NCBI GenBank assembly: GCA_964440985.1
Contig: CAYTWE010000005.1
Location: 1,206-65,205, forward strand
DNA from: an uncultured Lentisphaeraceae bacterium
Lineage (GTDB): Bacteria > Verrucomicrobiota > Kiritimatiellia > RFP12 > UBA1067
DNA length: 64,000 nucleotides
Direction: 5' to 3'
Below the pieces are notes generated by a model, which saw only the letters and a list, made by a program, of their open reading frames with translations, made no database searches and was not told where the DNA came from. The translations under genes and the position numbers were made by a program. Below, piece by piece: positions 5,672 through 62,329 of this stretch (its first letter is position 1; every line of letters begins with the position of its first letter).

Positions 5672-6481
5672 TCAGTGGATAGGCGGCGGTCCTCCCGGTC
5701 CGCCCGGTCTCGGCCCACGGCCGCCTGGCCCCATGTGCGTCTGAGTGGCTTCGTATATGGCTGATATCGTCTCCACGAATTCGCTCGCCTCGCTTTCCTT
5801 GATGCCCATGTCGCGCACGGTCTGCGTGAGCAGCGTGTTGCGCTCCGATTCCGCAAGCCTTTGCGTAAGCCGGTCAAGTTCCCTCAGTTCACGGAAGACC
5901 TCTCTGCGCTGCTCCTCCGAGACGTCTTCATTCTGCGGGTTTATCAACTCGCGCAGTTCTTCGCGCCTTGCGACAGCCTCCTGGTACTGGTCGTGTATGT
6001 CCTGCTCCGCTTTAGTCAGCCTTGAACGGTCTACGCTTCCGAGTATGTCGAGTTGGTTCTGCACCCTGTTCAGGTTCCGTTGGCGCATCCGCGCAAAGCG
6101 GTTGGTCATCTGCGCATATCGTTGAGGGTCGTTCTTGCGCATCTCCTCCATCCTCGCCCGCATTTCGGCGGCCGTTGGCGGGCCGCGCCGTTCCGCCCTT
6201 GTCGTGGCGTTCGTCGTGGTGACGGCAGACGGCTCGCGCTCCGTTTCCGGCGCAATCCACTGCGTCTGCGGTTCGCGTTTGGCGAGCTGGCGTTCGAGTT
6301 CGCGGATGCGTCTCTTTAGAAGCGGGATGTCGGCGTCATTCGCCTTAGTGGATCTTTTCGGTTTTGAAGCCACGTCAGTCTCAACGTTCGGGCTTTCGCC
6401 TGACGGACGAAGGTGGTAGCCGATGGCACCGCCGCAGATGAGCGCAGCTACCGATATTGCGAAAACTGATTTGCTGTTCAT
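5672..6481 (-). CDS. Hypothetical membrane-anchored coiled-coil protein with Gly/Pro-rich tail
   Basis: N-terminal hydrophobic helix (VFAISVAALICGGAIGY), Glu/Arg/Gln-rich helices, C-terminal GPGGRGPRPGGPGGPPP; start placed 7 nt below a TGGTATAAT box. Confidence 0.7.
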   Translation of the reverse strand: MNSKSVFAISVAALICGGAIGYHLRPSGESPNVETDVASKPKRSTKANDADIPLLKRRIRELERQLAKREPQTQWIAPETEREPSAVTTTNATTRAERRGPPTAAEMRARMEEMRKNDPQRYAQMTNRFARMRQRNLNRVQNQLDILGSVDRSRLTKAEQDIHDQYQEAVARREELRELINPQNEDVSEEQRREVFRELRELDRLTQRLAESERNTLLTQTVRDMGIKESEASEFVETISAIYEATQTHMGPGGRGPRPGGPGGPPPIH

Positions 6482-6488
6482 GTGCGGC

Positions 6489-6497
6489 ATTATACCA
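6489..6497 (-). promoter_or_regulatory. Extended -10 promoter TGGTATAAT, 7 nt upstream of ATG 6481 (leaderless-type)
   Basis: Plus strand ATTATACCA at 6489-6497. Confidence 0.7.
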
Positions 6498-6611
6498 TGT
6501 GCGGTTGCGGTCGGCACGTTCCTTTGCTGAATTCTGCACCTCAAGATAGGGTTGCCTGTCCGGGGCGGTTTGCATGATCTTGCATTTCAAAAAAATGTGG
6601 CGATAGGGGGA

Positions 6612-6641
6612 TTGACGTGGAAAAAAAAAAACAAATATCAT
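6612..6641 (+). promoter_or_regulatory. sigma70-type promoter TTGACG-18 nt-TATCAT with an A11 tract in the spacer
   Basis: TTGACG 6612-6617, A11 6621-6631, TATCAT 6636-6641. Confidence 0.55.
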
Positions 6642-6693
6642 CGTATGCCGTCTTTTTGAGCGTGGTGGCGGTGCTTAAAGCCGTCACCATTAC

Positions 6694-6915
6694 ATGGAAC
6701 AGACCTTTGAAAGGCGGTTGTCAATGGCGGCGAAAATGTTGTGTGGAGTGTCTGCAACGGGCGTAAGTTCCGTACGCAGGGCGTTGGCGTTCTGTCTCGC
6801 GGCGGCGGACGTGCGCTGGAATCACGGAAACGGAGACATCGCCGATGTCTCTCTCTGGAACGGCGAGCCGCTATCTGTGCCCCTATGGAATGATAGGGGC
6901 GTTATGCTAAAATAA
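6694..6915 (+). other. Possible small ORF or 5' gene remnant (73 aa) in a palindrome-rich intergenic region
   Basis: The only ORF downstream of the 6612 promoter; ALAFCLAAADVRWNHGNGD looks like a signal peptide plus the start of a mature secreted protein. Confidence 0.25.
6905..6913 (+). promoter_or_regulatory. Extended -10 TGCTAAAAT for the 6943/GH92 operon, preceded by inverted repeat GCCCCTAT-N6-ATAGGGGC (6879-6900)
   Basis: Read directly from the sequence. Confidence 0.55.
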
Positions 6916-6942
6916 CCGCACTCAATGAACAAAAGGTAATCA

Positions 6943-7887: not shown

Positions 7888-7931
7888 CTCCTCCGCGCTG
7901 CGGCCATACTGAAATGAAAATGGGAAAGACA

Positions 7932-10199: not shown

Positions 10200-10300
10200 A
10201 TGCAGCCTGATGCGCTGGTTCATTGTGAATGTCGATTGGCGGCTGACAGCCTGAAAATATTTGGACTGCCCTAATTTTGAGAAAAATGTAGCAAGGGGGG

Positions 10301-10329
10301 GTAGAAAAAAAAAATGGTTTTGGTACTAT
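10301..10329 (+). promoter_or_regulatory. Putative promoter (GTAGAA-17 nt-TACTAT, extended TG) with an A10 spacer tract and an upstream G7 tract
   Basis: G7 10295-10301, A10 10305-10314, TGGTACTAT 10321-10329. Confidence 0.5.
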
Positions 10330-10407
10330 TCTCTCTGTTGCGCGTTTAGTCCTCACGCGAGGCTTACGCCAAAGTGCTCTGGCGCTTCGCCAAGAAAGGA
10401 AACGGAG

Positions 10408-11754: not shown

Positions 11755-11769
11755 CGGGAGACTGACGCC

Positions 11770-13284: not shown

Positions 13285-13292
13285 GGTGACGA

Positions 13293-17525: not shown

Positions 17526-17538
17526 TGCGGCATTCCGT

Positions 17539-17573
17539 GGCGGCGTATTGTGCGTTGATGCAATTTCGCCGCC
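17539..17573. terminator. Imperfect hairpin between convergent genes
   Basis: GGCGGCG (17539-17545) pairs with CGCCGCC (17567-17573), with internal ATTG.GC/GCAAT pairing; no clear U-tract. Confidence 0.3.
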
Positions 17574-17592: not shown

Positions 17593-18231
17593 TCACTGGT
17601 TCCTGACAATCGCGTGTGACAGCACGGCGAGCGACTGTGCGAGATCCACGTTCTGCACGAGAACTCCGTCAGGCACCGACAGCTGCACGGCGGTGAAGTT
17701 CAGGATGCCCTTGATTCCGGCATCGACAAGCGCATCGGCGCAATCCTGTGCGGCAAGGCTCGGCACCGCGAGAATCGCGAGTTTCAGCTTCAGACGCTTC
17801 ACGAGGTTCTTGAGGTCTTCCATCGGATGAACCTTGACGCCGTGTATGGAAACGCCCTGAAGCTGCTTGTCGGAGTCGAACGCGGCCGCGACGGAAAGGT
17901 TCTGCTCCTCAAATCCGGAGTAGCCGAGAAGTGCGCTGCCGAGCGAGCCAACGCCGATCAGCGCGGCATCCGTCGCATTGTCCCAGCCCAGCGTACGGTT
18001 TATGGCCTCGCAAAGCTCTTTTGCGGGATATCCTCTGCGGGGTCTTCCCGGCACTCCGGCCATTGCGAGATCCTTGCGCGTAAGCACCGTATCGAGACCG
18101 AGGCGTTCGGCAAGCACATAGCTTGAAATGTACAGCTCACCTTCTGCCATCAGCTTGTTGATGGTGCGAAGGTACAGCGGGTAGCGTCGTATTGTCGGCA
18201 ACGGCAGCGAGTTTTCACGTGCAACATCCAT
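17593..18231 (-). CDS. rex: Redox-sensing transcriptional repressor Rex
   Basis: PLPTIRRYPLYL winged helix, TRKDLAMAGVPGRPRRGY, Rossmann GVGSLGSAL, GIKGILNFT. Confidence 0.93.
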   Translation of the reverse strand: MDVARENSLPLPTIRRYPLYLRTINKLMAEGELYISSYVLAERLGLDTVLTRKDLAMAGVPGRPRRGYPAKELCEAINRTLGWDNATDAALIGVGSLGSALLGYSGFEEQNLSVAAAFDSDKQLQGVSIHGVKVHPMEDLKNLVKRLKLKLAILAVPSLAAQDCADALVDAGIKGILNFTAVQLSVPDGVLVQNVDLAQSLAVLSHAIVRNQ

Positions 18232-18238
18232 GCGCCAT

Positions 18239-18247
18239 ATTATACCA
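18239..18247 (-). promoter_or_regulatory. Extended -10 TGGTATAAT, 7 nt upstream of the rex ATG
   Basis: Plus strand ATTATACCA. Confidence 0.7.
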
Positions 18248-18251
18248 CAGA

Positions 18252-18280
18252 TGCATTGCCGTTTGGATATATGCTACAAT
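18252..18280 (+). promoter_or_regulatory. Promoter of the glycosylation cluster; 26/29 identical to 37457-37485
   Basis: TGCATTGCCGTTTGGATATATGCTACAAT. Confidence 0.7.
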
Positions 18281-18290
18281 ACGCGATGTT

Positions 18291-20003
18291 ATGACGAATT
18301 TCAAGTTGACTGATGACGAAGCTGAGAAGTCCCAATCAGATGCGCCGAAACGGTTTTGGTGCGTCTTGTCTGCGTTGCGGCCGACGGGGCGGCGGTTTCA
18401 GCGCATCGCCTGGTTCTCGTCCTTCACCGCCGCATTTGCTGTGTTGGCGGCGTTCGTCTTCTGGGGGACATGGTCGTGTGATGTTGCCCCGGTCATGCCG
18501 GACTGCGTCACTGTTCATCCGACTGCATGGATGGATGTCTTTCGAGATGTCTTGCGGAAATTCATGTCTACCGGCAAGTTCGTTCCGAGCGACATTCTTT
18601 GGGATGGTCTTCTCATCTCGCCGTATTTCTGCCAGGAACTGAAGTATGCCGTTGCGCTCTATTGCGCGGGGCTGGGCCTTGCGTACTTCCTGCGTGGACG
18701 CGGCCTGTCGCGTATAGCATCCTATGGCGCGGGCCTGTTGCTGGCGTTCTGCGGCTACTGGGCGTCGCTCTTCTCCGCCGGTCATGGCGGCTGGTTCATC
18801 TGGATGACGTATGGCGTCTTTGCATTTGGCCTTGCCGACAGGGCGGTGCGCAAGGGGAAGTTGAAGAACTGGCTGCTTCTCGGCGCGTGTGCCGCGTGGG
18901 GCAGTTTCTATCAGCCGGATCTTTGGCTGCTCTTCACGGTTTTGACGGGACTGTATTTCGCATGGTGCTGTGTGCGAGAGCGGAGGCTTCCGTGGAAGGG
19001 TGCGCTTATTGCATCGGTTGTGTTCTTTGCCGTCGGTGCGCCGAGTTTCCGTTCAGCGCTTGTGAGCGACCTCAAGGGACGCGATGCGCAGATTGCCGCT
19101 GGCGAGACGGTCTCCTCCTCGTCGGCCGGTGACGATGCGGAAAAGCGCTGGATATTCGTCACGAACTGGTCGCTGCCGCCGGCTGAGATCGCGGAGTTCT
19201 TCATTCCTCGCCTGAACGGCGACACGAGCTGTCCGCTTACGCTTTCGATCGGTGCACAGTCTGGATCCGGGGTGCGGCCTTACACTGGCGCTCTCGGACG
19301 TCCGAAGGATGCGGCGCAGGGCAACTATCGTCAGCACTCGCTCTACGTTGGTTTCGTGACGTGTCTCCTTGCGCTTGCGGGCGTTGTCTTCGGCTGGCGC
19401 AAGCCGGATGCCCGATTCTTTGCGCTTGCGGCGGTAGTCTTCTGCCTCTTTTCTTTAGGGCGGTATTGCGAGCCGGTGTATCGTCTTGTCTATGCGCTGC
19501 CGTTCGGCGACTATCTGCGTGCGCCTGTCAAGTGGCATCATCTGACGGAGTTCTGCCTGTGCGTTCTGGCGGCGTATGGCATCGAGGGTTTGCTTGGCCT
19601 ATCTATCATGAAAGGAAGGTGCGGGCTTGTGCTTGCAGGGGCGATTGTGCTGATAGGAGCGTTCGACCTTGCGCGAGTCGATCGGCTCTACTGCGCACCC
19701 GTAGATCTGCGGCGCGTCCGCGAGACGGACAGCGAGATGCAGATGAACGTACTCCGTCGCGAGGATTTCTCCAATCCGCAGGTTGCTGAAATGGTGCGGC
19801 GAGGTTCGGTCGTCTCGCTTGCGCACTATCTCGGAAATCCAAACCTGTATCTTGTGGAGATTCTGACGCCGCGCAAGCCGTCGAAGGAACCGTTGCCGCC
19901 GTTCGGCACGGCGGCGGCTTTTGGAGTTCTGTCGATGGCTGGAACGCTTGCCGTGGCGGGCGGATGTGCGCTCGCTTGCCGCCGGGTGGGGGGTGACGCA
20001 TGA
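18291..20003 (+). CDS. Polytopic membrane protein, YfhO-like / GT-C-fold glycosyltransferase
   Basis: More than 10 TM segments; WSLPPAEIAEFFIP, YRQHSLYVG, YLRAPVKWHHL patterns; adjacent to GT2 and GT87. Confidence 0.6.
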   Translation: MTNFKLTDDEAEKSQSDAPKRFWCVLSALRPTGRRFQRIAWFSSFTAAFAVLAAFVFWGTWSCDVAPVMPDCVTVHPTAWMDVFRDVLRKFMSTGKFVPSDILWDGLLISPYFCQELKYAVALYCAGLGLAYFLRGRGLSRIASYGAGLLLAFCGYWASLFSAGHGGWFIWMTYGVFAFGLADRAVRKGKLKNWLLLGACAAWGSFYQPDLWLLFTVLTGLYFAWCCVRERRLPWKGALIASVVFFAVGAPSFRSALVSDLKGRDAQIAAGETVSSSSAGDDAEKRWIFVTNWSLPPAEIAEFFIPRLNGDTSCPLTLSIGAQSGSGVRPYTGALGRPKDAAQGNYRQHSLYVGFVTCLLALAGVVFGWRKPDARFFALAAVVFCLFSLGRYCEPVYRLVYALPFGDYLRAPVKWHHLTEFCLCVLAAYGIEGLLGLSIMKGRCGLVLAGAIVLIGAFDLARVDRLYCAPVDLRRVRETDSEMQMNVLRREDFSNPQVAEMVRRGSVVSLAHYLGNPNLYLVEILTPRKPSKEPLPPFGTAAAFGVLSMAGTLAVAGGCALACRRVGGDA

Positions 20004-24440: not shown

Positions 24441-24471
24441 ATGGATTTCGCAACTAAAAAGGAGTGATAAA

Positions 24472-24918
24472 ATGGAGGTAATGGTTGTTTCTGGCGCGAT
24501 TGCGTGCCTTGGGTTGAGTGCAGCCGGATCGGCGTTCGGGACAGGTCTTGCGGCGGCAGCCGCCGTGGGTGCATGGAAAAAGTGCTATGCGGCCAACAAG
24601 CCCGCCCCGTTCATCCTGCTTGGTCTTGTCGGCGCTCCCATCACGCAGACGCTTTACGGCATGATTCTCATGTTCGTCATGTTCGGCAAGACGGCCATCG
24701 CGGGGGCGGGAGTTCCGCTTCTTGTGCTGGGCATCTTTGCCGGTTTTGCGGTAGGGCTTTCCGCATTCCTGCAGGGACGCGTTGCGGCTGCGGCCTGCGA
24801 TTCGCAGGCGGAGACCGGACAGGGGCTTACGCTGTATTTCGCAGCGCTCGGCATCATCGAGACCGTAGCCATCTTCACGATGGTGTTCACGATCATTGCG
24901 CTCAGCAAGATAGCGTAA
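24472..24918 (+). CDS. ntpK: V/A-type ATP synthase subunit K (c ring), Na+-binding signature
   Basis: Four TM helices; PITQTLY, LQG, IIETVAIF; SD AAAAGGAG. Confidence 0.92.
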   Translation: MEVMVVSGAIACLGLSAAGSAFGTGLAAAAAVGAWKKCYAANKPAPFILLGLVGAPITQTLYGMILMFVMFGKTAIAGAGVPLLVLGIFAGFAVGLSAFLQGRVAAAACDSQAETGQGLTLYFAALGIIETVAIFTMVFTIIALSKIA

Positions 24919-26397: not shown

Positions 26398-27579
26398 TCA
26401 CCTTTCGGAAGATTTGAGAGGACGGCAGTGTGACGGAGGATGACCGCACTTGAGCTTGTACAGGCGCGTGAGATGCGTTGCGGACGAAAAACCGCACTGT
26501 TCTGCGATGCTGACGATCGATGCGTCCGTCTCACGAAGCAGCTTGGACACCCGTTCGAGCCTGGCGTTGATGATGCTGGCGTAGACGCTGGTCTTTTCGT
26601 GTTGCCGGAAACGCAGGTTGAGCAGCGACTGCGATACGCCGAGATGCCGTGCGACATCCGCCACGGTTATAGGCGACTGCGCATTTGCTGAGATGTAGTT
26701 CAGCGCACGCTCAACAAGCGATGCGCCGAGGTTCAGTTGGCAGGTCGAGTCGCGCACCACTATGCGCCGAGGCGGAATCCACAGGACTTGCGGGCGGAGG
26801 GCTGGCGTTTGAAGACGCATCAGCCGCTCTAAGGCGCATGCACCCTCGTAGCCCTCGCGACGGTAGTCGGGCGCGACGCTGGACAGGCTTGGAACGGATG
26901 TCGCGCAGAAGATGGGGTTGTTGTCAACTCCGAGGACGGAGATGTCACCTGGAATGCGCAATCCGGCTGCCCTGCAGGCTTCAAATGCGCTGGTGCTGTG
27001 GTAGTCGCCAGCGAGAAGGAGTGCGGACGGCTTCGGCAGCGCCAGCAGATAGCGTTGAAGTGCCTCATTGTATGTGGAGGAGCAAAAGGTCGCTCCGGTA
27101 GAGAAGACGCGAACGGTGCGTCCGTGCATCTGGAGTTCGCATCTGTAGCCGCGCAGACGGAGGCGTGACCAGCGTGAGGCGGGTATGTCTGGCAGAAAGG
27201 CGAATGAGCGAAAGCGTCCCAACGAAAGGAAATATTGCGCGGCCATCCGTCCTATCAGGCGGTTGTCAGCTCCGAGAAAAACTACGGACTGCCGCCGTCT
27301 GCAAAGCCGGTCGTCCGTGTTGCCGAGAGCGACAAGCGGCATCTGCACGTCGCGCAAGCAGACGCCAAGCTCATTGGAGAGCGGATGGTTGACAAGGATG
27401 CCGTCAATGCCATCGGCCCGGGCGGATTCGACAAGTGTGCGCGTGAGCGTCAAAGGTGGCGTAATCAGCCGGACGTTCCATGGATGCTGCCTTTCCCGGA
27501 TGTAGTCAAGGACGCCGGAGAGAACGTCTATGCTGGCCGGATTGACGGTTTGGAAGGAGAGTATGACGCTTTTACCCAT
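26398..27579 (-). CDS. XylR-type regulator (periplasmic-binding-protein-like sensor plus AraC HTH)
   Basis: IPGDISVLGVDN, SLSSV, C-terminal ITVADVARHLGVS...RLERVSKLLRETD.SIVSIAEQCGFSS. Confidence 0.88.
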   Translation of the reverse strand: MGKSVILSFQTVNPASIDVLSGVLDYIRERQHPWNVRLITPPLTLTRTLVESARADGIDGILVNHPLSNELGVCLRDVQMPLVALGNTDDRLCRRRQSVVFLGADNRLIGRMAAQYFLSLGRFRSFAFLPDIPASRWSRLRLRGYRCELQMHGRTVRVFSTGATFCSSTYNEALQRYLLALPKPSALLLAGDYHSTSAFEACRAAGLRIPGDISVLGVDNNPIFCATSVPSLSSVAPDYRREGYEGACALERLMRLQTPALRPQVLWIPPRRIVVRDSTCQLNLGASLVERALNYISANAQSPITVADVARHLGVSQSLLNLRFRQHEKTSVYASIINARLERVSKLLRETDASIVSIAEQCGFSSATHLTRLYKLKCGHPPSHCRPLKSSER

Positions 27580-27586
27580 GCGTTGC

Positions 27587-27595
27587 ATTGTAGCA
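27587..27595 (-). promoter_or_regulatory. Extended -10 TGCTACAAT, 7 nt upstream of the regulator ATG
   Basis: Plus strand ATTGTAGCA. Confidence 0.65.
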
Positions 27596-27622
27596 TAAAG
27601 ATTTTGAGCTTGGATAGGCTTG

Positions 27623-27657
27623 TCGGAATTGTCAATGAAATTTTATCGGAATCGTCA
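27623..27657. promoter_or_regulatory. Direct-repeat operator candidate TCGGAAT(T/C)GTCA x2, 23-nt period
   Basis: 27623-27634 and 27646-27657 match 11/12 and lie between the divergent regulator and the SGNH operon. Confidence 0.6.
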
Positions 27658-27677
27658 TTTATTTCCGTACAACCATG

Positions 27678-27686
27678 TGCTATATT
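27678..27686 (+). promoter_or_regulatory. Extended -10 TGCTATATT, 7 nt upstream of ATG 27694
   Basis: Read directly. Confidence 0.55.
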
Positions 27687-27693
27687 TTTCGAC

Positions 27694-29061
27694 ATGGGAA
27701 CACTTTTGAAAAATTCGTTGCGGATTGTCGGAAAGTTTTACGTCGCCCTGCTTTCGTTTGTTTGGTCTATTTTGTGCATCGCCGGAGAGGTCAAGCCACC
27801 ATTGCCGTTCCGTTCAGGCGAACGCATCGTGTTTCTCGGCGATTCAATCACCAAGAACGGCAAGTACCTCTACTTCCTCCAGCTGTTCGAGGAACTGCGC
27901 CATCCAGGGCGCGGCGTCACCTTTCTCAACGCCGGCATCAGCGGGGACCGTGTGGACAGCGGTCGTGAACGTCTTGACTGGGACGTGCTGCCGTTGAAGC
28001 CGGACCGTGTAATCGTAATGTTCGGCATGAACGATGTGAAGCTGGCGCTGTGGGAAAGCGCAACGCCGGACGCGGCAGCGCAGGATGCGCGAGACAAGGC
28101 CGTTTCCGGCTTCAGGCGCGAGTTGGAGCGGCTGATAGACGGATTGGCGACCGCAGGTGTGCGCTGCGATCTGGCGACGCCGCCGCCCTACGACCAGTAC
28201 GATGTCGCATCGAAGGCGGTGTGCCGCACGAACGGAAACGAGCCGGGGCTGGCGCGTCTCGCCGAAGTTGTGCGCCAAGTCGCGGCTGAACGCGGTCTCG
28301 GTCTCGTGGATGTCCACCGTCCGCTTACTGCCGTTCTGAAGTCTCATCCCGAACTTGGGCTGCTGCGCGGCGATCGGATACACCCGTGGTGGGAAGGACA
28401 CCTACTGCTGGCCGTCCAGTATCTTGAGGTCATGGGCGAAGATGGCGAGGTTGGGCGTATCGAGCTGACGGCGTCAGCGGCGAAGAGAGGTTTTCGCTAT
28501 GCCCCGAAGCGTCTGCCGTTCCCCCGTCTGGATGTCTTCTGGCGCAACATGGAGCGTACGGTCGAGACGGCGTATCCGTTTGAGGAGAGGTTCAACCGTG
28601 AGATCCTTGTGGTGAAGGGGCTGCAGGCCGGACGTTACGCCGTCCTGGCGGACGGGCGCGAGTTCGCGTCGTTTGACGCAGCAGAGCTGGCGCACGGCGT
28701 AAACATCGCGATGTGCGACACTCCTTCCTGTCGGCAGGCGCAGACGGCGGCAAAGACGATGATCGAGCTGATGACTCTTGAGACGACCTTTCGCGACGTG
28801 CCGTATATGGCGCGTACGGAGCGGAGCGTAAAGGATCTTGATCAGTGGCTGAAATCTCTTGAGAAGAATCCTCACCATGCGTACTATGCCTCCTGCGTGA
28901 AGTCGTATCGCGAACAGAAGGAGCGCGCACCGGAGACACAGGCGCAGGCGAGGGCGTTGCGGGCGCGGCTATCCAGGGAGGCGCAGGCGAAACCATGGGT
29001 GATTTCCGTTCGTCGCCTGACTGGCGTCGAACAGGGCAAACACGAAGTGAGAGGGAAATGA
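27694..29061 (+). CDS. SGNH/GDSL hydrolase (probable carbohydrate esterase), secreted
   Basis: FLGDSIT, NAGISGD, MFGMND, DRIHP blocks; N-terminal hydrophobic signal. Confidence 0.88.
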   Translation: MGTLLKNSLRIVGKFYVALLSFVWSILCIAGEVKPPLPFRSGERIVFLGDSITKNGKYLYFLQLFEELRHPGRGVTFLNAGISGDRVDSGRERLDWDVLPLKPDRVIVMFGMNDVKLALWESATPDAAAQDARDKAVSGFRRELERLIDGLATAGVRCDLATPPPYDQYDVASKAVCRTNGNEPGLARLAEVVRQVAAERGLGLVDVHRPLTAVLKSHPELGLLRGDRIHPWWEGHLLLAVQYLEVMGEDGEVGRIELTASAAKRGFRYAPKRLPFPRLDVFWRNMERTVETAYPFEERFNREILVVKGLQAGRYAVLADGREFASFDAAELAHGVNIAMCDTPSCRQAQTAAKTMIELMTLETTFRDVPYMARTERSVKDLDQWLKSLEKNPHHAYYASCVKSYREQKERAPETQAQARALRARLSREAQAKPWVISVRRLTGVEQGKHEVRGK

Positions 29062-44442: not shown

Positions 44443-44451
44443 TGGTATAAT
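44443..44451 (+). promoter_or_regulatory. Extended -10 TGGTATAAT, 7 nt upstream of ATG 44459
   Basis: Read directly. Confidence 0.7.
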
Positions 44452-44458
44452 TCGCCAC

Positions 44459-47400
44459 ATGAAAAGGTTTGCGCAGAGAGCGGCGTATGCGGTATGTGCC
44501 GTTTTTGCGGCGGTTTCGTGTTCTGCGGCCGTGTCGAGCATGGATTATCCGGATGCCGACGCCGTTGTCGTGGACGACATCACGCGCATTGAATACTTCC
44601 CCGACGGAACGTACGTCTCCGAAAACGACGAGCGCATTTTGGCGTTGACCGATAAGGGGCGCCGCTCGCTCCTCACGGCGTCGCTGTACGTGTCGCGCCG
44701 GTACGGTGATGCGGAGATCGTCAAGGTTGAGATAATCGGCACGAACGGCGTTGCCCGTGCCGTGGATTTCCGCAGTACGCTCAAGGAGGCGACAGACAAT
44801 TCATCGACTTCCTCCAACATATACGACCCGCTTGACCGGAAGATGTCTTGCGCCGTTACCGGCATGCAGATCGGTGAGATTCGGCGTGTCGTCACGCGTG
44901 AGCGGATGTCAAAGCCAAGGATGCGAGGGGCGTTCGCCACAGGTGCGCTGTTTGAGTCGACGATGCCGATTTTGCGTGCTTCATTAGAGATTGTGTCGCC
45001 GGCGGCGCTTCCGATCGTCAGCGAAAAGCTGCGGCATCCGCTTGAGGACACGGTGACGCGCATTCCGGACGAACGCCTTCCGGATGGGCGCGTCAGGATG
45101 AAATGGATCGCGGAGAACGTGCCGCAGGCGTTCGCCGAGCCGGACATGCCGTCCTTCGGATCGGTGTCGCAGAAGCTGCTCGTCTCCACGTCAAGGGGCT
45201 GGGAGGATGTGTCGCGCTGGTACTGGAACCTTTCTGTTCCGCATCTTGAGGCGACAAATCCCGCCATCTCGAACATGGTCGGCAAACTTGTCGGCGGGTT
45301 GTCGTCCGATATGGAGAAGATTCGCGCAATGTTCAGGTTCGTCTCCCAGGAGATACGCTACATGGGGCTTACGTTCGAGGATGAGTCGCCGGGGTACGCA
45401 CCGCACGACGTTTCCGTGACGTTCGACAGCAGATACGGTGTGTGCCGCGACAAGGCGGCTTTGCTTGCGGCCATGCTCCGCGTGGCGGGATTCGAGGCGT
45501 ATCCCGCACTCATATGCGCCGGTCCGAAGATGGACGATGACGTGCCGCTTCCATTCTTCAACCATGCGATAGTCGCCGTGGCGCATGGGCGGACGGCGTC
45601 CAAGCCCTCAGACTTCATCCTGATGGATCCGACCAACGAGAGCACAAGGGATCTGCTGCCAGCCTACCTCATGGACTGTTCGTATCTCGTGGCGCATCCA
45701 AAAGGGTTGCCACTCGCCGTCACGCCAGTCAAACCGGCCTCGGAGAACGCATTTCGTGCTGAGACCAGGGGGACGCTGTCCAATGACGGCTCTGCCATTG
45801 TCGAGACGTGCGCAACTTTCGGAGGAGTCAATGACCTGTTTCGCGGTGCGCTTCTCAAAAGGACGCAGAAGGAGCGCCGCAGGTTCTTCGAGAACATGGT
45901 GCGCTCGGAGTACCCAGGTGCGGAGCTGCTTTCATTCGAGTTGACTCCGACGGATCTGCGCGACACTGACAGCGCTCTTCGCGTTTCGATGACGGTGCGG
46001 CTTGCCGATCTTGTGGTGCGGGGTGCTACACGGGACGAGCTGACGCCACCGTTTTTGTTTTCCGGCTTTTCCGTGGCTGACCGGCTTCTGTCAAGCGGAA
46101 CGGAACTGGAAAGGCGCCGTTATCCGCTGAAGTTCTATTCAACTGCACTTGCTGAGGAACGCCTTTCGCTCAAGCTCGGCGATGCTGTCGGCATTCCGGT
46201 GAGCGTGCCGCCTGATGTCATCGCGGGCGAGAACGGTTGCCGTTACGAGAGGAGCATTGCGGTGTCGGACGGCATACTTACGGCGACACGGCTTCGCGCA
46301 GTTGACGCAACGGAACTTTCGCCGGAGGAGTATCTGAAGCTCAAGGAGGACCTTGAGACAATAGAGTTGGGAATCAGGCGGGAACCGCAGTTTGCCGCCC
46401 GCGACGGCGGAGCGGAGGCGAACGTCCGCATCGTATGTGACAGACGGGACGTTCACATATCGTCGCCGAACAGCTGGACGGTGACGAATGAGTGGGAGCG
46501 CGAGATCCTTACGTATGCGGGGAAGAAAAGCTCTGCCGAACTGAGCTACGGCTACAATCCGTGCGTCGGTACAATTGAAATTGTGTCCGCGACAGTGTCG
46601 AACCGCGATGGACGTGTGCATTCCGTCATGCCGCAGGAGATGAACAGGCTTGATGCCGGGTGGGTGGCAGGTGCGCCGCGCTATCCGGCAGGCAAGAGGC
46701 TTGTGGTGAATCTTCCCGCAGTCGAGATCGGCAGCGTGATACGTGTCAAGACGGTCGCCACGGTTACAAATTCGCCAATCGGTTTCTGCAGTTTGTATGC
46801 GTTTGACTCCGTTGATCCCATAACGGTCAAGGAACTCAGAGTGGACAGCTCTGAATGCGGCGATTCGTCCATGAAGGTCGCGTGGGGTAGGGAGTTGGGG
46901 CGCGTGGTCACGACGAATTGCATATCGTTTGCCGTCACGAATCCGGCGGCTCTTCCGCGTGAGGGCGCACAGCCGCCCGCCATGCTGTGGAGAAATTGCG
47001 TGTTGCTGTCGCTTGCCGATCTTGAACGGCATCGGGAGGCTCTGTGCGCCGAACTTGCGGCGGCGCGTTCCAGAGGTTCGGATGCAGCAAGGGCCAAGGC
47101 TGTTGAACTTGCCGCAGGACATGATTCAGCGGAAGGGCGGATAAAGGCTGTGAGGGATTGGCTGTGGAGGAATGTGCGGCTTGCCGGGCCTGATATGCTT
47201 GAGTTGCCGTTCGAGACGGCATTCTTCCCGCCGGACCGTTCGATTGCAGACGGATATGCGTCGGAGGCTGATTGGATGAACGTCTACTTCACTATGCTGG
47301 AGGCGATAGGCTGCGATGTGGAGTTTGTGCTGTCGGATGGGGATGCGGCCGGGTATCCGGCGCTGTCGCGCATACGCCGCGCCGTGCCTCAGCCGGACGA

Positions 47401-48196
47401 CTTCAGTGAACTGTTCATTCGTGCGACAGTGCGCGAAGGGGCGTTTCTTGGATTGTTCGGCGGTGAGGAAAGAACGTTCATCCTCGCCTATGAGAACGAC
47501 TGCACACCGCTCGGAGTGAGGGACGTTGACGGCCGCAGCGGCAAGACGGAGAGCCACATGTCGTTTGACGTGAACGAAACAGGGGCCGCCCGAATCACGG
47601 TGTCGAACTCCACATGGGGCGTTTCCGTCGCCGCCTTGCGCAAGCTGTATTCGGAGATGCTTCCGGAGAAGAGGTCTCGGCATCACGCCGAGCTTGTCGG
47701 CGCAATCGCTGAATCGGCAGAGGCGATATCGGAGCTTCATACGGATGTTGACGGATATCCGTTCTTCATCCGGTATTCCGTCTATGCGCCGAACTATGCC
47801 GCAAAGAACGGTGACACGCTCACGCTTGAGGTGCCTGGGCTTGGAGGTGCATTTCTGCCGAACTCCGATGGCGGACGGAAAAGTCCGTTTGGCGTCGGCG
47901 GACGGCTTCAGCCGATGGTGACGGTGCGCGAAATCGTTCTGCCGGAAGGGTACACGGCTGTAGAGCATCTGCCGGAGGCATGGGAAATTACGTTGCCTAT
48001 GGATGATGGCGCACGTTGCCGGAGTGAGGTGTTGAGCAGTGTGGTGGACGGACGACTGCGAGTGCTTGTGCGAGAGGAGCTGCTGCCTGTCAATGCGAGA
48101 ATGTTCGGATCGGAGTGGCTTGGATTCTTCCGTGACTGGAACAGACGCACGGACTCTCGGATCTCCCGCACCATCGTCGTCAGGAAAGAGAGATGA
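44459..48196 (+). CDS. Secreted fusion of two DUF3857/transglutaminase-like modules
   Basis: Module 1 has GVCRDKAALL, FNHAIV, MDPT (Cys-His-Asp); module 2 (PAVEIGSVI, IKAVRDWLWRNVR) lacks the Cys. Confidence 0.8.
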   Translation: MKRFAQRAAYAVCAVFAAVSCSAAVSSMDYPDADAVVVDDITRIEYFPDGTYVSENDERILALTDKGRRSLLTASLYVSRRYGDAEIVKVEIIGTNGVARAVDFRSTLKEATDNSSTSSNIYDPLDRKMSCAVTGMQIGEIRRVVTRERMSKPRMRGAFATGALFESTMPILRASLEIVSPAALPIVSEKLRHPLEDTVTRIPDERLPDGRVRMKWIAENVPQAFAEPDMPSFGSVSQKLLVSTSRGWEDVSRWYWNLSVPHLEATNPAISNMVGKLVGGLSSDMEKIRAMFRFVSQEIRYMGLTFEDESPGYAPHDVSVTFDSRYGVCRDKAALLAAMLRVAGFEAYPALICAGPKMDDDVPLPFFNHAIVAVAHGRTASKPSDFILMDPTNESTRDLLPAYLMDCSYLVAHPKGLPLAVTPVKPASENAFRAETRGTLSNDGSAIVETCATFGGVNDLFRGALLKRTQKERRRFFENMVRSEYPGAELLSFELTPTDLRDTDSALRVSMTVRLADLVVRGATRDELTPPFLFSGFSVADRLLSSGTELERRRYPLKFYSTALAEERLSLKLGDAVGIPVSVPPDVIAGENGCRYERSIAVSDGILTATRLRAVDATELSPEEYLKLKEDLETIELGIRREPQFAARDGGAEANVRIVCDRRDVHISSPNSWTVTNEWEREILTYAGKKSSAELSYGYNPCVGTIEIVSATVSNRDGRVHSVMPQEMNRLDAGWVAGAPRYPAGKRLVVNLPAVEIGSVIRVKTVATVTNSPIGFCSLYAFDSVDPITVKELRVDSSECGDSSMKVAWGRELGRVVTTNCISFAVTNPAALPREGAQPPAMLWRNCVLLSLADLERHREALCAELAAARSRGSDAARAKAVELAAGHDSAEGRIKAVRDWLWRNVRLAGPDMLELPFETAFFPPDRSIADGYASEADWMNVYFTMLEAIGCDVEFVLSDGDAAGYPALSRIRRAVPQPDDFSELFIRATVREGAFLGLFGGEERTFILAYENDCTPLGVRDVDGRSGKTESHMSFDVNETGAARITVSNSTWGVSVAALRKLYSEMLPEKRSRHHAELVGAIAESAEAISELHTDVDGYPFFIRYSVYAPNYAAKNGDTLTLEVPGLGGAFLPNSDGGRKSPFGVGGRLQPMVTVREIVLPEGYTAVEHLPEAWEITLPMDDGARCRSEVLSSVVDGRLRVLVREELLPVNARMFGSEWLGFFRDWNRRTDSRISRTIVVRKER

Positions 48197-49510: not shown

Positions 49511-50509
49511 ATGGTCAGCTACAAGGAACTTGGCCTCGTCAACACGAAAGAGATGTTTGCGAAGGCTGTAAAGGGCGGATATGCAATTCCGGCCTTCAAC
49601 TTCAACACGATGGAGCAGATGCAGGCGATCGTCCAGGCCGCCGTTGAAACCAAGTCGCCCGTCATCATGCAGGTGTCCAAGGGTGCGCGCAAGTACGCCA
49701 ACCCCACGATTCTCCGCTACATGGCGCAGGGCGCGGTCGAATACGCGAAGGAACTGGGCTGCGCGAATCCGCAGATCGTCCTCCACCTCGACCATGGCGA
49801 CAGCTTCGAGACGTGCAAGAGCTGTATCGATTCGGGTTTTTCGAGCGTCATGATCGACGGCTCTTCCCTGCCGTTCGAGAAGAACATCGAAGTCACGAAG
49901 CAGGTCGTCGATTACGCGCACGCGCATGATGTCACGGTCGAGGCCGAACTCGGCGTGCTCGCGGGCGTCGAGGATGAAGTCGCCGCCGAGGAGAGCCACT
50001 ACACGAAGCCCGAGGAAGTGATTGAATTCGCCACGAAGACGGGTTGCGATTCGCTCGCCATTTCGATCGGCACGTCCCACGGCGCCTACAAGTTCAAGCC
50101 GGAACAGTGCACGCGCGACCCCAAGACGGGCAAGCTCGTTCCGCCGCCGCTCGCGTTCGACGTTCTCGCCGAAATCGAAAAGAAGCTCCCCGGCTTCCCG
50201 ATCGTTCTCCACGGTTCCTCCTCCGTCCCGCAGGACGAGGTCGACACGATCAACAAGTTCGGCGGCAAGCTGCCGGACGCGGTCGGCATTCCGGAGGAGC
50301 AGCTCCGCAAGGCCGCGAAGAGCGCCGTGTGCAAGATCAACATCGATTCCGATTCCCGTCTCGCGATGACGGCGGCCATCCGCCAGCACTTCGCGGAACA
50401 TCCGGATCACTTCGATCCGCGCCAGTACCTCACCCCGGCGCGTGAGAACATGAAGAAGATGTACATCCACAAGATCGTCAATGTGCTTGGCTCGAACGAC
50501 AAGCTCTGA
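49511..50509 (+). CDS. fba: Fructose-1,6-bisphosphate aldolase class II
   Basis: AIPAFNFN, LHLDHG, GFSSVMIDGS, VEAELGVL, GTSHGAYKF, IVLHGSS, KINIDSD. Confidence 0.96.
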   Translation: MVSYKELGLVNTKEMFAKAVKGGYAIPAFNFNTMEQMQAIVQAAVETKSPVIMQVSKGARKYANPTILRYMAQGAVEYAKELGCANPQIVLHLDHGDSFETCKSCIDSGFSSVMIDGSSLPFEKNIEVTKQVVDYAHAHDVTVEAELGVLAGVEDEVAAEESHYTKPEEVIEFATKTGCDSLAISIGTSHGAYKFKPEQCTRDPKTGKLVPPPLAFDVLAEIEKKLPGFPIVLHGSSSVPQDEVDTINKFGGKLPDAVGIPEEQLRKAAKSAVCKINIDSDSRLAMTAAIRQHFAEHPDHFDPRQYLTPARENMKKMYIHKIVNVLGSNDKL

Positions 50510-50556
50510 TAGGTCTCTGTGCGAACGCTGCGCACGATGATGCGCGGCAGGTTGAG

Positions 50557-50590
50557 AAGGGGGATGCGCTGAAGCGCATCCCCCTTTCTC
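50557..50590 (+). terminator. Rho-independent terminator after fba
   Basis: Perfect 13-bp stem AAGGGGGATGCGC-TGAA-GCGCATCCCCCTT followed by TCTC/TGTTT. Confidence 0.8.
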
Positions 50591-50775
50591 TGTTTATAGA
50601 CTGCTCGATTTGCGGTTGGGTTTTGGTTGCTCATCGCAGAGGCGTCCTTGTCACATCAAAGACGAACTTCTCGCAGTTGTGGCTTGGTCTTTCATCGTAG
50701 CGGGCCGCAGACGGCAATCCAAATGGGGATGGTGGCGAGGTGTAAAGGGTGGCGTTGGATTGTTGGACGATATTA

Positions 50776-50784
50776 TGCTAAAAT
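50776..50784 (+). promoter_or_regulatory. Extended -10 TGCTAAAAT, 7 nt upstream of ATG 50792
   Basis: Read directly. Confidence 0.65.
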
Positions 50785-50791
50785 AGCGCAC

Positions 50792-52228
50792 ATGAACAAC
50801 AACAAGGCTACGTCGTTTCGGTGGATCATCTGCGCGATGCTCTTTGCCGCCACAACCGTCAATTACCTGGATCGTCAGGTTCTTTCCCTTACGTGGAAGG
50901 ACTTTATCGCACCAGAGTTTCACTGGAACGATTCGCACTACGGCGTAATCACCGGCTATTTCTCCCTCATTTACGCCGTGTGCATGCTTTTCGCCGGACG
51001 CATAGTCGACTGGCTCGGCACGATGAAAGGCTATTTGTGGGCCATATTCATATGGTCTGCCGCCGCCTGTGCCCATGCGGCCTGCGGTTGGGCGACGATG
51101 CACATCGAGGGCGTGGAATCCATCGCGGCGATGAAGGCGATTGAGTCCGGCTCGGCTCTCGCGGTCGCCGTCGGCTCCACATCGATGTGGCTGTTCCTCG
51201 CCTGCCGCTGCTTCCTCGGTTTGGGCGAGGCCGGAAACTTCCCGGCCGCAATCCGTGTGACCTCGGAGTATTTTCCGAAGAAGGATCGTGCGTTCGCGAC
51301 GTCAATCTTCAATTCAGGCTCGTCGGTCGGCGCCTTGGCCGCACCTGCGCTCATCCCGCCTATGGCGAAGTGCTGGGGGTGGGAATCGGCGTTCGTGGTC
51401 ATCGGTGCGCTCGGCTTCATCTGGATGGGATTCTGGATGCTCTTCTACCGCAAGCCGGAGGCCAGTCCGCACGTCAACGCTGCGGAGCTTGCCTACATCA
51501 ATTCCGACAATGCGGCAGGTGCGGACGCCACAGCCAAGGATGACGGGAAGGGCGTATCCATATGGAAATGCTTCACACTCAAGCACACGTGGGCGCTTCT
51601 GCTCGGACGCTTCACGACCGACGGCGTTTGGTGGTTCTTCCTCTTCTGGACGCCAAGCTATCTTTCAGACCAGTTTGGCTACACCAGTTCGTCTGGCATG
51701 GGCATGACGCTCATCATCGTCCTCTACGCCATCGTGACGTTCCTCTCCATCTACCTCTGCAAGATTCCGACATGGTTCGTTGACAGGAAGGGCATGAATC
51801 CGTACGAAGGGCGCATGGTTGCGATGTTCATCTTCGCGTGTCTTCCGCTCCTTGCGCTCGGCGCCCAGCCGCTCGGCTCGATGAGCGCGTGGTGGCCCGC
51901 CATCCTGATCGGCATCGCCTGCGCAGGACATCAGGCCTGGAGCGCAAACGTGTACTCCGTAGTCGGCGACATGTTCCCCAAGTCCACGATAGGCACTCTC
52001 ACCGGCATCGCCGGCCTTGCGTCCGGATGCGGCAGCTTCCTCGTCAACATCGGAGCCGGCAAGCTCTTTACGTGGTCGGCGGCGCAGGGCGATGCATTCG
52101 CGTTCCTCGGCTACACCGGCAAGCCCGCCGGCTACATGGTGATGTTCTGCTACTGTGCGTTTGCGTACCTTATCGGCTGGACGTGCATGAAGGTGCTCGT
52201 TCCGAAATACAGGCCGGTTGAACTCTGA
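50792..52228 (+). CDS. MFS transporter, ExuT-like hexuronate permease
   Basis: RWIICAMLFAATTVNYLDRQ, GLGEAGNFPAAI, EYFPKKDRAFAT, FWTPSYL, HQAWSAN. Confidence 0.85.
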   Translation: MNNNKATSFRWIICAMLFAATTVNYLDRQVLSLTWKDFIAPEFHWNDSHYGVITGYFSLIYAVCMLFAGRIVDWLGTMKGYLWAIFIWSAAACAHAACGWATMHIEGVESIAAMKAIESGSALAVAVGSTSMWLFLACRCFLGLGEAGNFPAAIRVTSEYFPKKDRAFATSIFNSGSSVGALAAPALIPPMAKCWGWESAFVVIGALGFIWMGFWMLFYRKPEASPHVNAAELAYINSDNAAGADATAKDDGKGVSIWKCFTLKHTWALLLGRFTTDGVWWFFLFWTPSYLSDQFGYTSSSGMGMTLIIVLYAIVTFLSIYLCKIPTWFVDRKGMNPYEGRMVAMFIFACLPLLALGAQPLGSMSAWWPAILIGIACAGHQAWSANVYSVVGDMFPKSTIGTLTGIAGLASGCGSFLVNIGAGKLFTWSAAQGDAFAFLGYTGKPAGYMVMFCYCAFAYLIGWTCMKVLVPKYRPVEL

Positions 52229-52249
52229 CCGCTGCTGGCGTGATTTGCC

Positions 52250-53632: not shown

Positions 53633-53675
53633 CGGTCGCTGTACGGTCGATCAGAACAACAAGGAGACAAGAGAG

Positions 53676-55067: not shown

Positions 55068-55082
55068 GAACTGGAGAAAACC

Positions 55083-56024: not shown

Positions 56025-56071
56025 TGAAGCGCCCATCGGTTGGCCGACATAGCACAGATTGAAGTGAAACC

Positions 56072-57652: not shown

Positions 57653-57675
57653 ATTTAAGCCAAAGGAGCCACCAC

Positions 57676-60288: not shown

Positions 60289-61790
60289 TTCCACGGTTGG
60301 CCATGCTGGCGGCTGCCGCCCTTGCTTCGGCGTTCGCCTGCGGAGAATCGGGTGCGGAACGGTCAGTGTATCGCCGTCCGTTCGGGCGGGTGGCGAGCAT
60401 GGATCCGATTCGTGCCGCCGATGTGCTGAGCGCAGAGGCTGTCGCCCTCGTATACGAGCCGCTTCTTGAGGTTGACTATGTGGCGCGACCGTACAGGCTC
60501 AAGCCGTGCGTGTGCGAGATGCCGGACGTCAGCGACGACGGAACCGTATACACATTCAAAATCATCGATGGACTTAAGTTCCGCAATGGGCAACCGGTCA
60601 CGTCAAAGGACGTGAAACGCGGCCTCGACCGTCTCATGGACAAGTCCAACGCCAGTCCGGGGATGTGGATAATGGACGGCGTAAAGTCCGTTGAGACAGT
60701 CGGAGACGACGCAGTTCGGATTACGCTCAAAAAGCCGCTTCATGTGTTCAAATGGCTCATGGCGATGCCATACACCGGGGTTGTGGCGGAGGACGGCTCC
60801 GGCTCCGGGGCATATTGGCTGAAGAGTTGGCGCAAAAACCACGAGATGGTGTTTTGGCGGAATGAATCGTACCGTGATGAGGTTGCGATAGACGAGATAC
60901 GTCTGCCGGTCGTGGATGACGTATCCACGCAATGGCTGATGTTCCTTGGCGGCGAGCTTGACTATCTTGGTAGCGTGTCTCGAGACAATTGGGATGCGGT
61001 TGTCGGAAAGGACGGCGAACTTCTTCCGCAACTCAAGGAGAAGGGGATGACGCTCATGGGCGCATCGTCTCTTACGGTGTTCTACGTTGGATTCAACATG
61101 AACGATCCGGTGGTCGGCAAAAACAGGAAACTCCGTCAGGCGCTGAACTGCGCGTTCGATTTCCCTGCATGGAAGCGCTTTCTGAACAATCGCGTGATGC
61201 CGAGTGACGGGCCGTTGCCGCCTGGGATAGAAGGGCGGCTCGAAACGCCGTTCGAATATTCGTACGACGAGGCGAAGGCCAAAAAACTGCTTGCCGAGGC
61301 CGGCTATCCCGGCGGAGCAGACCCGAAGACCGGGCGCCGTCTTCACCTTGAGATATCGATAGGCCGCGCAACCCAGGATGCGCGGGAGATGGCGGAGCTG
61401 ATGGCGGCGTTCTATGACCGGATCGGAATTGAGCTTGAAGCGAGATACATGACGTGGGATGCGTTCCTCACAGCCGTGAATGAAGGCCGTACGCAGATGT
61501 TCAACCTCGGATGGATCGGCGACTATCCCGATCCGGAGAACTTTCTGCAGATGTTCCATTCCAAAAACGTATCGCCGGGGGCGAACCACGGAATGTACGT
61601 GAATCCGGAGTTCGACAGGGCATTCGACGCATTGGACTGGAAGACGGCTCAGGAGATCGTCCGAGAGGACTGTCCGTGGATATTCCTTCATTCACCCAAG
61701 GTGTATTCGCTTGTCTGGAATCGGGTGAAGAACTATGTTCCGACCGACTTCACGTACGGAATCGAGAAGCATCTGCGCATTTCAAGATAG
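60285..61790 (+). CDS. ABC transporter substrate-binding protein, family 5 (peptide/oligosaccharide), probable lipoprotein
   Basis: LASAFA-C lipobox-like motif; SMDP, YEPLL, GFNM, LRQALN, WIGDYPDPENFL; no permease genes adjacent. Confidence 0.85.
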   Translation: MIPRLAMLAAAALASAFACGESGAERSVYRRPFGRVASMDPIRAADVLSAEAVALVYEPLLEVDYVARPYRLKPCVCEMPDVSDDGTVYTFKIIDGLKFRNGQPVTSKDVKRGLDRLMDKSNASPGMWIMDGVKSVETVGDDAVRITLKKPLHVFKWLMAMPYTGVVAEDGSGSGAYWLKSWRKNHEMVFWRNESYRDEVAIDEIRLPVVDDVSTQWLMFLGGELDYLGSVSRDNWDAVVGKDGELLPQLKEKGMTLMGASSLTVFYVGFNMNDPVVGKNRKLRQALNCAFDFPAWKRFLNNRVMPSDGPLPPGIEGRLETPFEYSYDEAKAKKLLAEAGYPGGADPKTGRRLHLEISIGRATQDAREMAELMAAFYDRIGIELEARYMTWDAFLTAVNEGRTQMFNLGWIGDYPDPENFLQMFHSKNVSPGANHGMYVNPEFDRAFDALDWKTAQEIVREDCPWIFLHSPKVYSLVWNRVKNYVPTDFTYGIEKHLRISR

Positions 61791-61797
61791 TTGGCTG

Positions 61798-61806
61798 TGC
61801 TATAAT
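61798..61806 (+). promoter_or_regulatory. Extended -10 TGCTATAAT, 7 nt upstream of ATG 61814
   Basis: Read directly. Confidence 0.7.
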
Positions 61807-61813
61807 GTGCGGC

Positions 61814-62329
61814 ATGAAGATTGCATTTATCAGTGATGTACACGGCGTACCGTCTACGCTTGAGGCGGCGCTTTCCGCCGCAGACGCGCTTGGCCATGAC
61901 CGGCTCGTGCTGCTTGGGGATCTGCTCTACCACGGTCCGCGCAACGGTGTGCCGAACTTCTACGACCCCGTGAAGGTGGCGAAGCTGCTCAATGCCCGCA
62001 AGGACAGGATAATCGCCGTGCGCGGCAACTGCGACGCAGAGGTCGATCAGATGATGCTTGAATTTCCCCTGATGGGCGACTATGCGGTCGTTGACGCAGG
62101 AACGGAAACGTTCTTTCTGACGCACGGACATATCTGGAACGAATGCAATCTGCCGCCCGCCGGCCTTGGCACCGTGCTTGCGCACGGACACACCCATGTC
62201 CCTGTGCTGAAGCGTCTTGAATGTGGGCTTGTTCTGTTCAACCCCGGCTCAATCTCCCTCCCGAAGGGCGGCAGCGCCCGCAGTTTCGGATACTTCGACG
62301 GCAAGTCGCTTCGCCACGTCCAGATCTGA
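61814..62329 (+). CDS. yfcE: YfcE/MJ0936-family phosphodiesterase
   Basis: SDVHG, LGDLLYHGPRN, RGNCD, THGH, HGHTH, NPGSISLPKGG. Confidence 0.88.
   Translation: MKIAFISDVHGVPSTLEAALSAADALGHDRLVLLGDLLYHGPRNGVPNFYDPVKVAKLLNARKDRIIAVRGNCDAEVDQMMLEFPLMGDYAVVDAGTETFFLTHGHIWNECNLPPAGLGTVLAHGHTHVPVLKRLECGLVLFNPGSISLPKGGSARSFGYFDGKSLRHVQI

Follow-up and report, generated by a model that had tools for sequence, protein, structure and literature searches.

Extended −10 promoters abutting ATG codons point to leaderless or near-leaderless gene starts in a gut Kiritimatiellia lineage

How is translation started at a gene whose ATG is preceded, only seven nucleotides (nt) upstream, by what looks like a promoter? 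The question is raised by a 64,000-nt stretch, positions 1206-65205, of contig CAYTWE010000005.1 (the window), which belongs to the metagenome-assembled genome (MAG) of an uncultured gut Kiritimatiellia bacterium (2.10 Mb, 80 contigs, 59% G+C). DNA of the window has been found in gut and faecal metagenome runs. An earlier, sequence-only reading of the window had noticed seven genes in which the motif TG(G/C)TA(T/C/A)A(A/T)T is followed by exactly 7 nt and then ATG. It proposed that the lineage uses leaderless initiation widely for the first genes of units, including regulators. The computational analysis described here makes it highly probable that these genes have leaderless or near-leaderless starts, produced from extended −10 promoters that abut the ATG. 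In the proposed mechanism, sigma-70-type extended −10 promoters with the consensus T-R-TG-n-TA-t-AAT and a weak or absent −35 element would begin transcription on the A of the ATG or 1-4 nt before it. The resulting messenger RNA (mRNA) would be too short upstream of the AUG to hold a Shine-Dalgarno site, and its 5'-terminal AUG would instead be bound by a ribosome that carries initiator tRNA, as in the leaderless route of translation.

A scan of the window for TGSTAHAWT-N7-ATG returned exactly seven matches, at the very positions that the sequence-only reading had given, and each of the seven ATGs opens a substantial open reading frame (ORF) that is a real gene. On the minus strand, a gene for a membrane-anchored coiled-coil protein of 269 aa (site 6479-6497, CDS 5672-6481) has the box TGGTATAAT at 6489-6497, the spacer GCCGCAC and its ATG at 6479-6481. 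In rex (site 18229-18247, CDS 17593-18231), the box TGGTATAAT at 18239-18247 is followed by ATGGCGC and the ATG at 18229-18231. The gene for a regulator that combines periplasmic-binding and AraC-type domains (site 27577-27595, CDS 26398-27579) has TGCTACAAT at 27587-27595, the spacer GCAACGC and its ATG at 27577-27579. On the plus strand, a GDSL/SGNH hydrolase gene (site 27678-27696, CDS 27694-29061) has TGCTATATT at 27678-27686, TTTCGAC and the ATG at 27694-27696. A transglutaminase/DUF3857 protein of 1245 aa is encoded downstream of TGGTATAAT at 44443-44451, with the spacer TCGCCAC and the ATG at 44459-44461 (site 44443-44461, CDS 44459-48196). The gene for a major facilitator superfamily (MFS) transporter (site 50776-50794, CDS 50792-52228) has TGCTAAAAT at 50776-50784, AGCGCAC and the ATG at 50792-50794. 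In a YfcE-type metallophosphoesterase gene (site 61798-61816, CDS 61814-62329), TGCTATAAT at 61798-61806 is followed by GTGCGGC and the ATG at 61814-61816. The N-terminus of the coiled-coil protein is a hydrophobic anchor, and a Pfam search with this protein gave no match. The N-terminus of the hydrolase, whose gene is divergent from that of the AraC-type regulator, resembles a signal or anchor peptide. The transglutaminase protein has a typical signal peptide, MKRFAQRAAYAVCAVFAAVSCSAA.

All seven spacers are 7 nt long with C as their final base, and a search of these spacers for a GGAG, GAGG or AGGA core found none; the description in the sequence-only reading is accurate on each of these points. 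Could such an arrangement be an artefact of chance or base composition? Nothing beyond the shortness of the motif favours this explanation, and its probability is negligible. The window holds seven motifs, whereas 100 dinucleotide-preserving shuffles yielded 0.03 on average and never more than 1. In the source genome, the N7 pattern occurs 50 times, against 0 for a reversed-pattern control. The spacer peak and the difference between start-region and internal ATGs, both described below, refute it as well.

Is the distance of 7 nt a property of the genome or only of these genes? A genome-wide count of motif-to-ATG distances, which the sequence-only reading had proposed as a check, does show a peak at 7 nt. 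The motif of that reading has 294 copies, and an ATG follows at spacer 7 in 41 of them; spacers of 6, 8, 9 and 10 nt gave 12, 15, 21 and 13, and spacers 11-20 gave 4-11. When the box was defined as TGnTAnnnT and the ATG had to open a coding ORF (at least 60 codons with a positive coding score), spacers 6-11 were found 14, 50, 23, 27, 20 and 14 times and spacers 12-21 only 3-10 times. Thus the earlier wording, "exactly 7 nt", is right for the genome-wide mode and wrong as the sole spacing, since there is a real shoulder at 6-11 nt. The peak is restricted to ATG, as no coding-ORF spacer peak was found genome-wide for GTG or TTG after TGnTAnnnT. Genes were also called with a self-trained caller based on codon usage, which gave 1571 genes and 92% coding. 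Among 3011 in-frame ATGs of gene start regions, an extended −10 box stands at spacers 6-11 in 13, 43, 21, 22, 19 and 9, compared with 1, 4, 1, 4, 1 and 4 of 12879 internal ATGs that served as the control. The genome therefore has a localised −10 box about 6-8 nt before the start codon, which is the signature of the group C type defined by GeneMarkS-2.

What is the box itself? The 9-mer TGNTANAAT has 387 copies genome-wide and its reversed control 38, and it is therefore a selected signal. A coding ATG follows within 6-12 nt in 117 of the 387 copies (13, 42, 21, 21, 12, 6 and 2 for spacers 6 to 12), and C precedes the ATG in 38 of the 42 sites with spacer 7. The other 270 copies have no adjoining ATG. 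A composition profile was made from 374 extended −10 sites, 259 of which have no nearby coding ATG, and in these 259 the TRTG "-16" motif is seen as a T at −10 followed by a purine at −9. A weak TTG stands 17 bp before the hexamer, and the 6-nt discriminator is rich in G+C and poor in T. The discriminator is followed by C in 51% of sites at +7 (G in 10%) and by A in 36% at +8. The dinucleotide CA occupies offset 7 in 63 of the 259, compared with 11-31 at neighbouring offsets. Positions +9 to +12 are 44-50% T and poor in C. Because the first transcribed bases are T-rich, TTG is in excess 8-12 nt past the box; these TTGs were considered as alternative start codons and rejected, as they open no coding ORFs.

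The C/A step is likely the pyrimidine(−1)/purine(+1) mark of a transcription start, which would lie eight bases past the hexamer and, when the spacer is 7 nt, on the A of the ATG. Many spacers of 9-10 nt also have CA at positions 7-8, and the leaders predicted for them are 1-4 nt long. With a TG one base upstream of TAnnnT and a −35 element that is weak or absent, the sites have the composition of putative extended −10 promoters of the sigma-70 type. The same 9-mer, rich in A/U, immediately precedes start codons without a Shine-Dalgarno sequence, as would be expected of a translation enhancer acting in the RNA of leadered mRNAs, for example as a site for protein S1. It is extremely unlikely that the box works in this way. 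A total of 270 copies have no adjoining ATG, and the C/A step, the TRTG and the weak −35 at 17 bp in the 259 profiled copies are features of DNA recognition by sigma-70. Furthermore, extended −10 promoters with leaders also occur in the window (for example at 6905, 22037, 37477 and 48286), and these leadered genes have the same box 20-40 nt upstream together with an ordinary Shine-Dalgarno sequence.

Is the proximity of box and ATG conserved in relatives? For rex, 80 Rex loci of 62-100% protein identity were compared; many of the 79 loci other than that of the window come from Kiritimatiellae/Verrucomicrobia MAGs of human, goat, sheep, yak and horse guts. TAnnnT was found 6-13 nt before the N-terminal ATG in 77 of the 80 loci, nearly always TG-extended, with spacers of 7, 8, 10 and 9 nt in 28, 15, 14 and 9 loci. 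The sequence of the spacer is free to vary across the 80 loci while the arrangement of box and ATG stays. All 18 homologous loci of YfcE align from residue 1, and the box stands exactly 7 nt upstream in seven of them (that of the window and six same-genus orthologues); several of the other loci have a Shine-Dalgarno-like sequence, such as aaggagaacaaaATG. In the MFS gene, an extended −10 box was found 7-8 nt before the same ATGAACAAC in 10 loci (that of the window and nine orthologues), and more distant orthologues have Shine-Dalgarno leaders (gaaggagggctgccATG and similar). Among 18 homologues of the AraC-type regulator in relatives, mostly paralogues of 32-44% identity, 12 have a −10 box that precedes the aligned ATG by 6-13 nt. 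The GDSL hydrolase has a single close orthologue (89% identical), and the arrangement is retained there.

Orthologues without the box thus often have a Shine-Dalgarno-like sequence before the same ATG. That one and the same ATG can stand behind a box in some loci and a ribosome-binding site in others strongly supports the start codon, and likewise an evolutionary switching between the two modes of initiation. The spacers of the seven window genes have no Shine-Dalgarno core, and the few bases, if any, between the predicted transcription start and the ATG would leave no room for one.

Are these ATGs the true starts of translation? For six of the seven window genes, longer open frames extend upstream (the longest ORF exceeds the proposed start by 21, 0, 3, 153, 112, 55 and 101 codons in the seven genes), and the gene caller placed a few starts elsewhere. 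These facts would fit another start codon and a short ordinary leader, with the ATG 7 nt past the box being internal. Such an explanation is very unlikely. In rex, the frame is closed by a stop 14 codons upstream, and the stretch between holds no alternative start; the Rex DNA-binding domain begins at residue 9. The YfcE Pfam domain aligns from residue 1. Ten more genes with a spacer of 7 nt elsewhere in the genome were matched to curated NCBIfam models, with alignments that start 1 to 1 for purD and queA, 1 to 2 for the acyl carrier protein, 4 to 4 for proA, 5 to 1 for proC, 6 to 3 for a PcrA-type helicase and 5 to 2 for a GluRS-type protein (gltX); an NAD synthase, a RarA-like ATPase and a dCMP-deaminase-like protein were the further matches. 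Thus family models align mostly from residues 1-5, and orthologues align from residue 1, some of them having a Shine-Dalgarno sequence before this same ATG. Candidate ATGs deviate from the starts chosen by coding potential by a median of 0 codons. Upstream alternatives lie inside or before the box. For instance, the in-frame ATG three codons upstream in the 269-aa coiled-coil gene falls within the −10 box, and the longest-ORF start of the transglutaminase gene (44123) would create an overlap with the preceding gene, which extends to 44390. As far as family models and orthologues indicate, the codon that follows the box is very probably the true translation start. The earlier statement that the ORF-track starts of these genes are too long applies to six of them, with an excess of 3-153 codons, and fails for rex, in which the longest ORF begins at the proposed ATG.

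Can RNA data decide between leaderless and leadered transcripts? The available data are contigs assembled from two gut metatranscriptomes, which come from relatives that are 89-97% identical and hold no counts of molecule ends. They were compared with eight stretches and used neither for nor against leaderless initiation. Several points limit the case for it. At four of the six covered candidate sites (the MFS, regulator, transglutaminase and acyl carrier protein genes), contigs of relatives cross the −10 box and reach 45-143 nt upstream of the ATG; leadered or read-through transcripts, or carried-over DNA, exist at these four loci. Furthermore, 20 of about 100 candidates lie less than 40 nt behind a gene on the same strand, and co-transcription is therefore likely there. 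The gene calls are those of a home-made caller, which overlooked the AraC-type regulator because a neighbouring ORF had been over-extended; six of the 117 candidate sites lie in such missed genes.

The crossed boxes and the closely spaced candidates would be expected if the boxes were real but minor promoters, with most transcripts beginning further upstream or reading through from the gene before, and the ATG being reached by coupling or by internal initiation that needs no Shine-Dalgarno sequence. This is rather unlikely. The −10 box of the 6905 promoter, which is classed as leadered, is likewise crossed by a contig. The contigs cross both kinds of promoter and therefore do not discriminate between leaderless and leadered transcripts; they come from other species, without counts of molecule ends, and may reflect carry-over of DNA or pervasive read-through. 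Minor promoters would also leave the tight spacing, the C before the ATG and a conservation that spans about 80 species unexplained. Leaderless or near-leaderless initiation accounts for these features, and two of the RNA observations are compatible with it. The contig coverage of relatives ends, with nothing upstream, 27 nt inside the ORF of rex and about 20 nt inside that of gltX. The rex region itself was searched for in the RNA runs, and no run holds it.

How many genes are started in this way? With the strict 9-mer, candidates make up 81 of 766 first-in-unit genes (genes in divergent orientation or separated by 40 nt or more from the gene upstream), and the looser TGnTAnnnT gives 127 candidate genes. 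It is estimated that genes predicted to be leaderless or to have a leader of at most 4 nt represent about 8% of genes, about 11-16% of units, or roughly one in seven, and about 30% of the recognisable consensus promoters. The proposal that leaderless initiation is used widely for first genes is thus backed in kind, as every in silico test agrees with leaderless or near-leaderless initiation, and is set in scale at about 8% of genes. Regulators are among the candidates, as had been proposed (rex and the AraC-type regulator), and the set shows no bias towards them. It comprises about 117-127 genes that mix housekeeping genes with regulators and includes purD, proA, proC, queA, gltX and the gene of the acyl carrier protein. 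Most other genes of this genome appear to be Shine-Dalgarno-led. One sample, small and perhaps biased, comprises 130 genes whose starts are unambiguous. They show a zone rich in purines from −17 to −5, and a rough check found a Shine-Dalgarno 4-mer in about half of the 130 and a nearby TAnnnT in about 7%. The 3' end of the 16S rRNA was sought in the MAG for its anti-Shine-Dalgarno tail, and none is present.

How far does the signature extend among relatives? In 13 genomes of the genus (that of the window and 12 others), TGNTANAAT-N7-ATG was found 33-104 times per genome, against 4-16 times for an N16 control. Two other genera of the family behave like the genus of the window, and copies of TGNTANAAT outnumber the reversed control about 10-fold in all three. 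The count of TGNTANAAT-N7-ATG is 0-9 in four further genera of this family (relatives G013, G015, G016 and G017) and in most other families of the order, and there TGNTANAAT shows no enrichment over the reversed control. In the non-enriched genera, rex has a Shine-Dalgarno-like sequence upstream and no nearby box. A TAnACT variant, TGNTANACT, was considered as the promoter of the sister genera and rejected, since most genomes show no enrichment of it over its control. Across 151 genomes of the phylum, the signature is concentrated in part of this family and in one other family of the order; the remaining genomes have low counts that do not exceed about 22, with the exception of two in which the control counts are high as well. 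The genomic counts indicate that the trait is clade-specific within Kiritimatiellia, and the promoter consensus seems to differ sharply between close genera.

A broader scenario can be put forward tentatively, as possible but doubtful. A large clade of uncultured Kiritimatiellia from gut and rumen, with 80 or more genomes at species level, may have moved wholesale to near-consensus extended −10 promoters, about one-third of which would fire onto a start codon. This would be a recent and datable switch of regime within one family. If so, genes would flip between Shine-Dalgarno-led and leaderless initiation at an unchanged start codon, and the switch could indicate a changed housekeeping sigma factor or a changed ribosomal handling of 5'-terminal AUGs.

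Several other features of the window and its relatives were noted. A possible eighth case, with a short leader, is the 570-aa ORF at 18291-20003 on the plus strand (site 18272-18293), where the box TGCTACAAT at 18272-18280 is separated from the ATG at 18291 by 10 nt. The position of this start is uncertain, as the coding-potential caller chose 18564; the ORF has no Pfam match, and its box stands back to back with the rex promoter. Extended −10 boxes are arranged in this manner in two divergent gene pairs of the window; the boxes of rex and the 18291 ORF are separated by 24 bp, those of the regulator and the GDSL hydrolase by 82 bp, and a clear −35 element is lacking in both pairs. In the second pair, an RNA contig of a relative that is about 91% identical covers 27230-27694 and has Illumina adapter at both ends, and its right end, 27693/27694, is the predicted +1 of the GDSL gene. 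The contig lies on the side of the regulator, and the match may be fortuitous, or the opposite strand may have a 5' end here without a recognisable promoter. The regulator family to which the AraC-type protein belongs (periplasmic-binding and AraC domains) has two copies in this 2.1-Mb genome and 10-32 copies in several genomes of 3-5 Mb from the same genus or family, which looks like a loss of regulators during genome reduction.

Upstream of the MFS gene, an intrinsic-terminator-like hairpin (50560-50595; GGGGATGCGC-TGAA-GCGCATCCCC, then a T-rich run) separates it from a class-II fructose-bisphosphate aldolase gene (49511-50509), which has the greatest depth of RNA contigs in the region. Looser versions of the motif do catch false positives. 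One of them, TGATAAAAT-N7-ATG at 24465-24483, was rejected; AAGGAG precedes the ATG at 24472, within the 9-mer, and this gene is therefore Shine-Dalgarno-led. Almost all genes of the window (1-64000) are on the plus strand, and GC skew is positive all along it, with values of 0.07-0.13 up to about 48 kb and 0.02-0.03 across 48-64 kb.

Why do these starts matter? Gene callers that expect a ribosome-binding site misplace them, and the affected genomes are uncultured, automatically annotated MAGs. Correct starts alter predicted signal peptides, N-terminal domains and promoter maps. The main practical weight of the present results thus lies in the correct calling of gene starts; leaderless initiation is well known, and the case is of specialist interest and holds no surprise. 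After Akkermansia, the lineage would be the second within Verrucomicrobiota and the Planctomycetes-Verrucomicrobia-Chlamydiae (PVC) superphylum in which leaderless genes are frequent. A natural comparison for the gain and loss of leaderless initiation is offered by neighbouring genera that have or lack the signature, in which the same starts have either a Shine-Dalgarno sequence or a box.

How does this system compare with those already known? The mechanism is already known; the lineage and the clade-specific distribution are new. A full-text search of the literature on leaderless genes in Kiritimatiellia, Lentisphaerae and Verrucomicrobia found no description for this lineage. In a survey of Shine-Dalgarno usage, the class Kiritimatiellae was assigned to the canonical anti-Shine-Dalgarno type with 63% Shine-Dalgarno genes, and its leaderless genes were not discussed (PMC10783764). 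The closest signature is that of GeneMarkS-2 group C, in which a Pribnow box stands 6-8 nt from the start, mainly in Actinobacteria and Deinococcus-Thermus (PMC6028130). As in group C (for example Mycobacterium tuberculosis and Deinococcus deserti), the −10 box here is 6-8 nt before first-in-operon starts that lack a Shine-Dalgarno sequence, and leaderless genes coexist with Shine-Dalgarno-led genes in one genome (PMC6028130). In group C genomes, 25-50% of operons are predicted to be leaderless (PMC6028130), a share that the units of this genome do not reach at the estimated 11-16%. Furthermore, the promoters here have a near-consensus extended −10 (TRTGnTAtAAT) and belong to a lineage of the PVC superphylum, whereas the group C box is a bare TAnnnT. 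Mycobacteria also use GTG for leaderless starts; in contrast, only ATG is used here, with no peak for GTG.

Extended −10 promoters themselves are familiar from E. coli and Gram-positive bacteria (the TGn class), and the likeness extends to the TG one base upstream of the hexamer, the T at −10 counted from the end of the hexamer and a −35 element that is weak or dispensable. Unlike here, that class is not particularly tied to leaderless mRNAs. The nearest precedent in taxonomy and habitat is Akkermansia muciniphila, a gut bacterium of the same phylum (Verrucomicrobiota in the broad sense). Cappable-seq of the mouse gut mapped 10% leaderless transcription start sites in A. muciniphila compared with 0.4% in E. 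coli (Ettwiller et al. 2016, PMC4782308). The share in A. muciniphila (10% of transcription start sites at annotated starts) is similar to the one estimated here. The sites in A. muciniphila were mapped experimentally and those of the present lineage are predicted from sequence, and no Kiritimatiellia were covered in that study. Finally, the N7 signature is several-fold denser in this genome, with 50 hits in 2.1 Mb, than in other classes of the phylum, in which it reaches at most about 22 per genome apart from the two genomes with high control counts.

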